NCBI GenBank assembly: GCA_031362565.1
Contig: JANLSU010000106.1
Coordinates: 63,031 to 127,030 of the forward strand
Source: a bacterium
GTDB taxonomy: Bacteria; Krumholzibacteriota; Krumholzibacteriia; G020349025
Direction: 5' to 3'
DNA length: 64,000 bases
This document shows, in pieces, positions 43,076 through 45,648 of this stretch (the first letter of the stretch is position 1; each line of letters begins with the position of its first letter). Under the pieces are notes generated by a model. That model ran no database searches. It worked only from the letters and a program-made list of their open reading frames with translations, and was not told the origin of the DNA. The translations under genes and the position numbers were made by a program.

Positions 43076-44611
43076 ATGCGTGACTTCCACCGCAAATATC
43101 ACTTCGGTCTCGCGGCGCTGGTGCTGTGGCTCGTGCCGCTTGTCGTTGCGGCGTTGCCGCCGCGGCACGGCGAGATCACGCTTCTCGAAATGACCGACTT
43201 TCATGGCGCGTTGGTGGGCGGTGGCAAGGACCGTGTCACGTCCCGGCCGTGGGGCGGGGCGGTGGCGCTTTCGCAACGCGTCCGCGCCGAACGCGACCGG
43301 CGGCCCGACCGCACGTTTCTGTTGGACGGCGGCGACGAGATGCAGGGCACGCCGGAATCCAATTTCGTGTACGGGCGCTCGTCGGTGGCGATCTTGAACG
43401 CGCTCGGCGTCGACGCGGCCGCACTCGGCAATCATGAATTCGACTGGGGCATCGATTCGCTCCGCGCCCGCCGCCGCGAGATGCAGTATCCGACGCTGGC
43501 GGCGAACGTCTTCGAACGTGCCACCGGCAAGCGTCCGGACTGGGTGCGCCCCTGGACTGTGGTGACGCGCGACGGCGTGCGTCTTGGCGTCATCGGTTTC
43601 GCGACCCCCGATACGCCGCGCGTGACTTTGCCCACCAACGTCGCGGCGTTGCGTTTCGAGGCGCCCGAACCGCTCGTCGCAGGCCTGGTGCGCGAAGTGC
43701 GGCAGCACGGTGCCGATCTCGTCGTCATTCTGTGCCACATGGGCGGCGAGCAAGCGGCCGATGGCGCCATCACGGGCGATGTCGAGCGCCTGGCCCGGGC
43801 CGCGAAGGGCGTCGATGCCATTCTCGGCGGCCACACGCACACGTTCGTGGCCGGACGCGCGCACGGCGTGCCGATCGTCATCGCCGGTTCGAGCGCTCGC
43901 GCCCTGGGCCGCATCGTCTTCGATTGGGATGGCCGCCACGCGCGCTGTACGTCGGTGGATCTGCTGCGCGCCTTTTCGGATTCGATGACGGTGGCGCCCT
44001 GGGACCCGATCTCGGCACTCGTCGATTCGATGCGGGCGATCGCCGCACCCTACACGCGCCGCGTGCTGGGGCAAGCCACCGGGCCGCTCAATCGCGCCGC
44101 ACTCGCCAATCTCGTCACCGACGCGATGCGCGAGGCGACGCACGCCGAGGTTGCGATCACCAATCCGGGCGGGTTGCGGCGCAACCTCGAAGCCGGACCC
44201 GTGACGGCGGGTGACATCTTCGAACTCTTGCCCTTCGAGAACTCGCTCGTCGTCGTCGAGCTTACCGGGGCGCAGTTGCGGGCGGTGATTGCCTCGCGAC
44301 CCGAAAAAAGCCGGGTTTCCGGGGTGCAGGGCCGTTGGGATCCGAGCCAAGCTCCGGAGGCGCGGCTCGAACTGCAGGAGGCAGGCGGCGCACCCTTGCG
44401 GCTCGATCATACGTATCGTGTCGTCACGACGAATTTCTTGGCGAGCGGTGGGGACGGCTTCAAGGGATTCGATGCCGGCACGCAGACCGACCAACCGCTC
44501 TTGCTGCGCGACGTCGTCGGCCAAGCGATCGAACGACGTACCGCCGCCGGCCAGCGCCTCGATCCCGATCCGACGGCGCGGCTCCAGCTCCCCGAAACGC
44601 GCGACGAGTAA
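43076..44611 (+). CDS. Bifunctional metallophosphatase/5'-nucleotidase (UshA-like), secreted
   Basis: TDFHG, LDGGDEMQG, LGNHEFD, GGHTH, NPGGLR, LPFEN; GTG 43031 is an alternative start. Confidence 0.92.
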   Translation: MRDFHRKYHFGLAALVLWLVPLVVAALPPRHGEITLLEMTDFHGALVGGGKDRVTSRPWGGAVALSQRVRAERDRRPDRTFLLDGGDEMQGTPESNFVYGRSSVAILNALGVDAAALGNHEFDWGIDSLRARRREMQYPTLAANVFERATGKRPDWVRPWTVVTRDGVRLGVIGFATPDTPRVTLPTNVAALRFEAPEPLVAGLVREVRQHGADLVVILCHMGGEQAADGAITGDVERLARAAKGVDAILGGHTHTFVAGRAHGVPIVIAGSSARALGRIVFDWDGRHARCTSVDLLRAFSDSMTVAPWDPISALVDSMRAIAAPYTRRVLGQATGPLNRAALANLVTDAMREATHAEVAITNPGGLRRNLEAGPVTAGDIFELLPFENSLVVVELTGAQLRAVIASRPEKSRVSGVQGRWDPSQAPEARLELQEAGGAPLRLDHTYRVVTTNFLASGGDGFKGFDAGTQTDQPLLLRDVVGQAIERRTAAGQRLDPDPTARLQLPETRDE

Positions 44612-44636
44612 GATCAGAAATGTGGGGGGGGAATAG

Positions 44637-44677
44637 AAAAAGGCGGAGACTCAAAAGGGGGGAATGAGCCTCCGCCT
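44637..44677 (-). terminator. Rho-independent terminator
   Basis: Minus strand AGGCGGAGGCTCA-TTCCCCCCTTT-TGAGTCTCCGCCT-TTTT: 13-bp stem (one G-U) followed by a U tract. Confidence 0.8.
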
Positions 44678-44729
44678 GTTCGTCGTCTGAGTGATCCTTT
44701 GCCTCTCTCCAGGTTCCGAATCGCTCGAA
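44637..44729 (-). ncRNA. Candidate sigma54-dependent small RNA (~95 nt) with C-rich terminator loop
   Basis: Lies between a -24/-12 promoter (44739-44756) and an intrinsic terminator; no credible ORF. Confidence 0.6.
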
Positions 44730-44738
44730 GACTTCCTA

Positions 44739-44756
44739 TTGCACGCGTGATGCCAG
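44739..44756 (-). promoter_or_regulatory. sigma54 -24/-12 promoter
   Basis: Minus strand CTGGCATCACGCGTGCAA, exact GG-N10-GC spacing. Confidence 0.65.
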
Positions 44757-44795
44757 CCCGCCGGAGGCCCCGCGTCGCGCTGCGACCACAGTTTC

Positions 44796-44813
44796 TAACT
44801 ATTTGTAAAACAA
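44796..44813. promoter_or_regulatory. IHF-like AT-rich site
   Basis: TAACTATTTGTAAAACAA resembles YAA-N4-TTGATW; rare AT island ~45 nt upstream of the sigma54 promoter. Confidence 0.45.
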
Positions 44814-45021
44814 CGGGTTCTGTACCTGCTTCGGGGCGATACCGGGAGCGGTCTCGCGCCTCGATCGAGTCTCGCTCTGTCTCCCTTGGAGGACGCTCTG
44901 TCCGATGCGGTGGCCGCCGATCGCGAGCCCGTACCGGCGGTGCGATTCGGCGCCGGCGTTTTTCTCCTTGCGCCGTGCCGCTCGAAAAGGCCATGGATGG
45001 ATCGCAGTGGGAGGCAATGAA

Positions 45022-45648
45022 GTGGATCCCGATCTGGCGCGGTTTCTAAATTGGGTGCGGCCACGAACTCGGCGCGGGCACGCGGCGTTTTTCGAAGCCA
45101 TGGTCGTCGAACTGGCGGATCACTTGCGGCGCCGCGGCCGCCGGGCGCGAACCTTGGGCGCGGCGGACCTGCGCGGGTTTCTGGCCGGCTGGGCGTTGCG
45201 CAACGAACCGCGCATGCGCGGCGCGGAACTGCGCGCCTTTGGCGCCGCGTTGTGTGTTTTCGCCGCCTGGCATGCAACCGGTCTCGCGGCCGGCCGCGGC
45301 CGGCGCTTGCGCGCTGATGTGCGGCGTGGGGTGCGCGATACGCAGCAGGCATTTCGCGCCGGCGCGCTGCTCGATGCGTGCATCACCACCGGACCACAGA
45401 ACGGCACGCGCGATGGCTTTTGGCAGGTGGCGCTCGCCGGCACGGCGCATGTCGTGCTGCGCGATCTGCAGGGCGGGGCTTGCGTCGGCCCGGTGCCATT
45501 GCCGGCGGGTGTCGTTGCCGCGTTGCCGGCGGGTGCGGTCTTGAATCTGCGCCTTGCTTCGGACGCCGCCGGCTGGTCGGTGGTCGAACACGGGGCATGT
45601 TATCCGGCGCTCGTGGCGTCCGAATTGCGCGCCGGTGCGTGGTCCTGA
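45022..45648 (+). CDS. Hypothetical protein (helical N-domain plus beta-rich C-domain)
   Basis: GGGAGG SD before GTG; stop overlaps the next ATG. Confidence 0.6.
   Translation: MDPDLARFLNWVRPRTRRGHAAFFEAMVVELADHLRRRGRRARTLGAADLRGFLAGWALRNEPRMRGAELRAFGAALCVFAAWHATGLAAGRGRRLRADVRRGVRDTQQAFRAGALLDACITTGPQNGTRDGFWQVALAGTAHVVLRDLQGGACVGPVPLPAGVVAALPAGAVLNLRLASDAAGWSVVEHGACYPALVASELRAGAWS

Follow-up and report, generated by a model that had tools for sequence, protein, structure and literature searches.

RepG of Helicobacter pylori carries a C-rich terminator loop which pairs with a G homopolymer of its target mRNA (PMC8295292); as outlined there, the G-repeat is situated in the 5' UTR and is variable in length. 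Chaperone-independent binding of C-rich loops to G-rich mRNA motifs in GC-rich bacteria was described for sX13 of Xanthomonas (PMC3771888) and for the 6C sRNA of Mycobacterium (PMC6486639), each of which has two or three C loops and acts on many mRNAs. RNAIII of Staphylococcus aureus binds the coa mRNA at two distant places, through a duplex at the RBS and through loop-loop pairing within the coding sequence, and RNase III cleavage accompanies these contacts (PMC2837412). Pxr of Myxococcus is a stand-alone sigma54 sRNA with an upstream enhancer region (PMC5684412). GlmY and NrsZ are likewise stand-alone sRNAs with a sigma54 promoter and an upstream enhancer region. Qrr also belongs to this type, and OxyS-fhlA is a further system of comparison.

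The locus described here lies in a window of 64,000 nucleotides, which is the whole stretch of DNA analysed. On the minus strand, a sRNA of about 95 nt is predicted at 44635..44729 (87-96 nt in homologues). By analogy, its action would be most like that of RepG combined with RNAIII-coa, and by Rfam it belongs to none of these systems. As in RepG, a C-rich terminator loop faces a G-run, here by complementarity. Unlike the length-variable 5' UTR repeat of RepG, the G7 run is fixed and lies in the coding sequence as GGG-GGG, and a second seed in a GA loop, a sigma54 promoter and the lack of a Rfam sequence match further distinguish the RNA. Like RNAIII on coa, it is predicted to make two distant contacts on one mRNA. 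RNAIII is far longer, driven by quorum sensing and directs C-rich loops to the SD, whereas the present RNA has ~95 nt, is predicted to be sigma54-driven and would direct a purine loop to a pyrimidine leader. Unlike sX13 and 6C, the present RNA has a single C loop beside its GA loop, and the conserved G7 sites number two so far. Features of C-loop sRNAs of the RepG, sX13, 6C and RsaE type were found as an unpaired conserved loop in 10/10 homologues and as complementary G-sites in a small ORF (5/5) and in mfd (6/7). Pxr has three stem-loops and adjacent pxrR/pxrK, while two stem-loops flanked by a nucleotidase and a hypothetical gene are present here; the Pxr model RF01812 gave no match above cut-off in seven family genomes, with two weak matches elsewhere in genome G000.

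The preferred reading, to which a probability of about 0.5 is given, is that a conserved sigma54-dependent sRNA uses two loops against two family-specific mRNA sites and represses the mRNA of a small ORF independently of Hfq. Such an RNA would unite features known separately, namely sigma54 enhancer control, a RepG-like C loop on a G-run and RNAIII-like docking at two sites.

Genomic context and homologues

The predicted sRNA is situated between a 5'-nucleotidase family gene (43076..44611, plus strand, PF02872), which is convergent with it, and a conserved hypothetical protein gene (45022..45648, plus strand), which is divergent from it. The nucleotidase gene adjoins the sRNA in 4/4 genome relatives and 4/5 metagenomic loci, and the hypothetical gene in 4/4 and 3/5, respectively. 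The hypothetical protein has no Pfam or NCBIfam match. By eye, its N-terminal pattern resembles the core-binding domain of tyrosine recombinases, and unnamed look-alike clusters occur in several phyla. A purpose-made codon-model gene caller placed all 46 predicted genes of the window on the plus strand, and ARAGORN detected no tRNA in it. A preliminary description of this DNA had called the element the only minus-strand unit in 64 kb, which is right among predicted genes and tRNAs, the two classes covered. All motifs which it named were found in place.

Both flanks are adjacent in four of the six other genomes of the bacterial family, and the element is present in unchanged orientation in each of the four spacers. 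In G004 and G006 (64% and 86% complete), neither orthologues of the flanks nor a match to the RNA were found. BLASTN of the region against 60 relatives returned chance matches only, and the homologues were obtained through synteny. A pattern scan of metagenomes gave 18 matches, of which seven were real (strong with covariance model R1; five new sequences), five represented a different element and six were due to chance. The homologue set therefore holds 10 sequences, five genome copies found by synteny and five metagenomic ones. The pattern contained the stem-1 base and six C, with promoter, enhancer, terminator stem and flanks left out of it; since it demanded the former two, their conservation is unbiased only in the five genome copies. 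As the element is conserved in 4/4 relatives with a syntenic locus and in five distinct metagenomic sequences, it goes beyond chance. Two records with the element (L090, L095) are labelled Ca. Latescibacterota and Ca. Krumholzibacteriia.

Predicted structure of the RNA

Folding of the homologues gave two stem-loops per RNA. The base of stem-loop 1 (44689..44726, minus strand), GAGCGAU/GGAUCACUC, is invariant and includes a C.A mismatch. Its seven pairs are 100% paired; six show no variation and, being invariant, carry no information on structure. The stem-1 base is also invariant in the five copies found by synteny. The GA-rich loop region (44698..44719, minus strand; core GGAGAGAGGCAA at 44710-44699) exposes a GAGAGA loop and is predicted seed 1. 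About 50 purine-rich nt had been described here earlier; the GA-rich part is present, and the region folds as a conserved stem-loop which had gone unrecognised. The invariant GGAUCAC of stem 1 (44691-44697, minus strand) equals seven nt of the 16S rRNA 3' end of G000 (GGATCACCTCC), which may be chance. That end of the 16S rRNA is recognised by KH-domain proteins, Era for example.

The terminator hairpin (44641..44677, minus strand) has 13 bp and the loop UUCCCCCCUUU. With the 10 homologues collected, two-sided changes were observed at 4/12 pairs and the stem was 97.5% paired. The covariation score was reached by 0/500 shuffles and the pair count by 80/500, the sequences being kin and not independent. 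The C-rich loop (44654..44664, minus strand; C6 at 44662-44657) is predicted seed 2; it has six to eight C in the homologues and is unpaired at 0.97-1.00 in the predicted fold of 10/10. The U-tract (44637..44641, minus strand) shows 4-8 T of 8 on the sRNA strand against 1-3 of 8 on the other strand in 10/10. The hairpin with its C-rich loop and U-tract, as described before, is thereby borne out.

The second C-run ATTCCCCCCCC (44624..44634, minus strand) lies beyond the U-tract and probably falls outside the RNA. Its sequence is as had been described, but it is not conserved, with at least six C in 2/10 homologues and at least five in 4/10. The fold of the window copy has a z-score of -2.24 (5/200 shuffles equally good), which is weak alone. 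No ORF or start codon is conserved in the RNA among the homologues, and the window copy has no ATG.

Promoter and upstream elements

The sigma54 -24/-12 promoter TGGCA-N7-TGCA (TGGCATCACGCGTGCA) was located at 44755-44740 (minus strand), with a predicted +1 near 44729. TGGCA-N7-TGC is kept in 10/10 homologues, 27-31 nt ahead of the conserved RNA start motif. At two mismatches the consensus had 105 matches in the window, where 76 were expected, and such a match is weak alone. An enhancer-like palindrome, ACA-N2/3-YGTCC-N8-RGACA, was found at 44878..44901 (minus strand) and is a predicted binding site of a sigma54 activator. In 8/9 homologues with upstream sequence, a palindrome of the GTCC-N8-GGACA type is present and the ninth carries a variant; the end of its core is 118-129 nt upstream of the -24 box in 9/9. 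The exact pattern is nearly unique, occurring once per genome in 4/5 genomes and twice in one. A matrix of the enhancer gave its top score at this promoter among 34 intergenic sigma54-like sites, the matrix being derived from the same promoter. Between enhancer and promoter lies an AT-rich island (44790..44815, minus strand), which is putatively IHF-like. The AT fraction at -75..-25 is 0.46-0.70 against 0.31-0.34 for the loci in 9/9 homologues.

rpoN is encoded in 5/5 genomes, and G000 has 22 strong matches to the activator domain PF00158. The flanks of the sRNA hold no activator gene. The promoter and the AT island proposed in the preliminary description are supported by these data. With its promoter spacing, RpoN, activators and upstream site, the predicted RNA is a candidate member of the class of sigma54-dependent sRNAs.

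It is very improbable that there is no RNA gene at all, the hairpin being the terminator of the plus-strand transporter-nucleotidase operon and the upstream motifs serving the divergent gene. In G000 the nucleotidase stop is followed after 30 nt by the hairpin, and two-mismatch matches to the sigma54 consensus are common. However, the reading as a plain operon terminator fails because the U-tract is on the sRNA strand only. In 10/10 the spacing of the promoter is fixed and its orientation is opposite to that of the divergent gene, and loop and stem-1 sequence are conserved while the spacer lengths vary.

Apart from this locus, 9/34 intergenic sigma54-like promoters of G000 have no gene on the same strand within 400 nt. 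These may drive further unannotated RNAs, for example at C33:21893(-), C57:3184(+) and C97:32262(-).

Distribution of the RNA family

Outside the bacterial family, the covariance models R1 and R2 found nothing convincing in the genomes searched. Weak model matches occurred in 19/144 genomes of other classes; the 22 examined were mostly ordinary terminators, none with a sigma54 motif. R2 gave five weak matches in 146 genomes (one, G065, outside the inspection). The pattern scan of GTDB gave 22 matches, three of them real and without new sequence, and that of viruses gave none. G000 has no paralogue of the sRNA. Among the sequencing runs listed, no holder of the RNA was detected, and the DNA contigs of sequencing runs gave two short near-identical pieces and nothing else. 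In Rfam 15, no family matched in the window at gathering score, over the element at E<=10 (five loci) or in three metagenomic homologues, so the element is indeed unannotated as had been claimed. Among the papers listed for the lineage, none dealt with a sRNA, and subscription papers and supplements may hold such a motif. Judged from sequence, the sRNA family is real, absent from Rfam 15 and restricted so far to one bacterial family.

Two kinds of look-alikes were noticed. A different conserved two-hairpin element with U-tract is present on five metagenomic contigs (L106:1496-1585; also L107, L110, L116, L117). It matches R1 weakly, has no sigma54 motif, no Rfam match (L106) and neighbours unrelated to the sRNA locus. 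C-run look-alikes at the G000 contig ends C38, C61, C44, C98 and C101 were rejected as they resemble IS21-family terminal repeats; these ends show repeated TTTTCAG...TTTCCCCCC motifs beside transposase-like sequence.

Target search

The C-rich loop had been called anti-SD-like. The SD of G000 is GGAGG (798/3382 upstream windows against 174 shuffled) and G5/G6 runs are depleted in these windows, so that a loop made of C alone suits G-runs better than this SD, and the anti-SD part of the preliminary description is not supported as worded. A search for AAGGGGGG-ATG likewise gave no shared SD target, the apparent shared match being the reverse strand of a coding gene.

Targets were predicted by a two-genome scan. 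The purpose-made gene caller was applied to G000 and to 2.4 of the 3.84 Mb of G003; of the 1134 reciprocal pairs, the 656 with concordant starts were retained. Four RNA segments were scanned against the windows from -60 to +30. With the GA loop, one mRNA was singled out: a small membrane ORF topped the 656 pairs with z of -3.8 and -4.5 at an identical position in both genomes, the runner-up having -2.05. Shuffled seeds did as well in 1/60, corresponding to about 0.1 after correction because four segments were scanned. In single genomes the ORF ranked 4/3862 and 2/1737. The scans with the C loop, the linker and the whole 5' segment gave no standout among the 656 pairs. The best C-loop SD target had z of about -2, G7 runs upstream of starts were not kept in orthologues, and G7 sites kept between the two genomes lie inside coding sequences only.

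The G7 run of the small ORF was spotted after the GA-loop scan and counts as a further prediction in its own right. A G7 close to the start is shared by the two genomes in 2/656 pairs and in 2/1134 (0.12 expected), namely the small ORF and mfd. A pyrimidine 7-mer near the start in both genomes was found in 1/1134 (0.18 expected), and the small ORF is in both sets. The GA loop of stem-loop 1 appears to be the main seed.

The small membrane ORF ahead of tRNA-Val

The ORF (G000:C75:63486-63665) encodes a predicted two-helix membrane protein of 59 aa (56-59 aa overall). The protein is present in 170/201 genomes of the class, its gene adjoining tRNA-Val. It has no family match, with none to PF11297 (DUF3098) above cut-off; a lead to DUF3098 came from a feature similarity of 0.85, with 15% of the cluster members carrying this domain. 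The structure model has two helices (pLDDT 80) and no fold match at E<=0.001. In G000 the tRNA-Val begins 10 nt before the ORF end, with the ORF stop inside the tRNA gene (L274:3487-3733; G000:C75:63486-63732), so that a RNase P cut would yield an mRNA lacking its stop codon. The ORF stop of four relatives is just ahead of the tRNA.

The leader site CUUCUCUCUG, which complements the GA loop, directly follows a sigma70-like -10 box and is itself closely followed by the SD; the G7 run at codons 17-18 complements the C loop. The codon pair GGG-GGG is rare, being used for 62/10,778 Gly-Gly pairs in G000. Both sites are present in 5/5 family orthologues and in 0/25 best-scoring orthologues of three other families. 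Among 208 genomes, the joint pattern was found on the ORF in 5/7 family genomes and in 2/201 others, both away from the ORF. Because both loops match sites found only in the family's copy, the sRNA likely controls the small-ORF gene by pairing, and the pairing itself is considered probable. A concrete sRNA-target pair is thus predicted in an uncultured lineage from sequence alone, with unusually good support for the predicted target.

The pairing extends in a species-matched manner. UUCCGA of the G000 leader faces UCGGAA of its RNA, and GUGACCUGGA of the G001 leader faces UCGGGUUC. The three G000-type RNAs pair best with the G000 leader (-27.7, -28.6 and -24.3 against -16 to -22 kcal/mol), favouring it by 3-9 kcal/mol. 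The G001 RNA pairs best with the G001 and G006 leaders, and the G003 RNA reaches -23.1 kcal/mol on its own leader, weaker than on those of G000, G001 and G006. Suppression of synonymous change in codons 8-30 was seen in the family alone, at 0.22 against 0.40 downstream; two other families gave 0.50/0.46 and 0.63/0.57. Both mRNA sites, leader and G7, are also predicted to pair in cis, and this could be the reason for their conservation.

The target gene is old (170/201), with the docking sites and the mRNA fold found only in the RNA-bearing family, which makes this a clean case of a sRNA and its target arising together, including the choice of synonymous codons. Family specificity counts as one evolutionary event since the members share ancestry. 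RNA and target occur together in G000, G001 and G003 only. G004 and G006 have the target sites and no RNA match; in G002 and G005 (71% and 97% complete) the RNA is present, and the ORF and its upstream neighbour were not found. Assembly gaps might explain the missing partners.

Two further ideas were rejected. A third contact, of the stem-1 5' strand with codons 21-24, was discarded as other families score as well. A type I antitoxin does not fit a single-copy target on another contig which is present in 170/201 class genomes, nearly all of them without the RNA.

Proposed mechanism and direction of control

In the preferred mechanism, an enhancer-binding protein bound about 120-145 nt upstream, together with a bend at the AT island, would activate sigma54 transcription, and the RNA of ~95 nt would end at its own hairpin. 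Pairing of the GA loop would cover the initial ~15 nt of the leader and reach the SD edge, the 10-bp core growing to 15-18 bp. The C6-8 terminator loop would kiss the G7 at codons 17-18, a loop-loop contact which was scored as isolated duplexes only. The duplex would then block initiation and/or invite RNase III, an enzyme detected in 6/7 genomes. Cofolding favoured the leader duplex by 4-11 kcal/mol.

The direction of control is the weakest step of this model. Repression or RNase III decay is preferred because the duplex reaches the SD edge and raises the cost of RBS opening in the longer mRNA, to 12-15 kcal/mol with the leader bound against 10-13 kcal/mol (increase in 5/5). Since mRNA folding alone is predicted to lock the RBS, repression may be redundant.

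Activation was considered since binding lowers the cost of RBS opening in the nascent mRNA. Here the CU tract would be a cis anti-SD in the nascent transcript, and the sRNA would free the RBS before the long-range lock forms. The nascent leader indeed pairs with the SD region in 4/5 genomes, and at +15 blocking of the leader cuts the opening cost by 0.2-6 kcal/mol in 5/5. This is nevertheless judged quite improbable, for the duplex as predicted touches or enters the SD and the opening cost in the longer mRNA rises in 5/5.

A sponge is also possible, given an mRNA which folds into a locked state with both sites exposed and which forms the 5' leader of a tRNA precursor. Once freed from the tRNA-Val precursor by RNase P, the structured leader with the small ORF would catch both loops and set a threshold for the sRNA, whose real targets would be mRNAs with G-runs, mfd among them. 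There is precedent for sponges derived from tRNA spacers, as in 3'ETS-leuZ. The ORF is fused to tRNA-Val behind a sigma70-like promoter, and its 5' region in the family is unusually structured (z of -2.3 to -3.3 in 5/5, against 1/25 others) and predicted to be RBS-locked by 10-13 kcal/mol, with the CU tract mostly single-stranded (0.60-0.90). The restriction of mfd to a C-loop site agrees with it as well. Still, the ORF is a widely conserved protein gene with a SD, and one further conserved C-loop site was found and no more, leaving the sponge unlikely.

The preferred repression model and the sponge both lead to mfd, on which the C loop would likely dock also. A G7-8 run near codons 24-26 is present in 6/7 family genomes, the seventh having it with one mismatch, and G7 in the same window occurs in 1/18 outside the family. 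mfd offers the C-loop site only. The mfd starts in the family (L316-L322) have no clear SD and a -10-like box near the ATG, and a conserved ACCTCCCTG/CGGGAG hairpin follows directly after the G7. The locus hints that mfd and a tRNA precursor may come under sRNA control. A rather unlikely, speculative extension would make of it a module of one lineage, in which a two-seed sigma54 RNA acts with a re-engineered small-protein/tRNA-Val transcript (new pyrimidine leader, GGG-GGG codons and RBS-locking fold). The released leader would serve as a coding sponge gating mfd control, and transcription-coupled repair would thereby be tied to tRNA synthesis with neither Hfq nor ProQ involved.

RNA-binding proteins

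Hfq was found in 0/5 and ProQ in 0/7 genomes, in line with the Hfq-independent action of the preferred reading. CsrA is present in 5/5. The element might be a protein-binding RNA, for instance for CsrA or a KH-domain protein. The mRNA sites would then be kept for cis folding, frameshifting or phase variation, and the loop match would be due to chance. In favour of this, CsrA occurs in all five genomes and its gene in G000 is not part of a flagellar cluster; the unvarying base of stem 1 hints at a protein site, and GGAUCAC is shared with the 16S rRNA 3' end. The RNAs however carry 2-5 GGA motifs each, mostly within stems, on which account a CsrA decoy of the CsrB/RsmZ type was rejected despite the presence of CsrA. 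Two separate loops fit one mRNA and the extension of pairing is species-matched, so protein binding as the whole explanation is regarded as doubtful, with a small chance of being right. The csrA gene of G000 (L099, G000:C70:13484-13726) is situated between a HU/RNase R cluster and a sigma54 activator gene, with no flagellar cluster.
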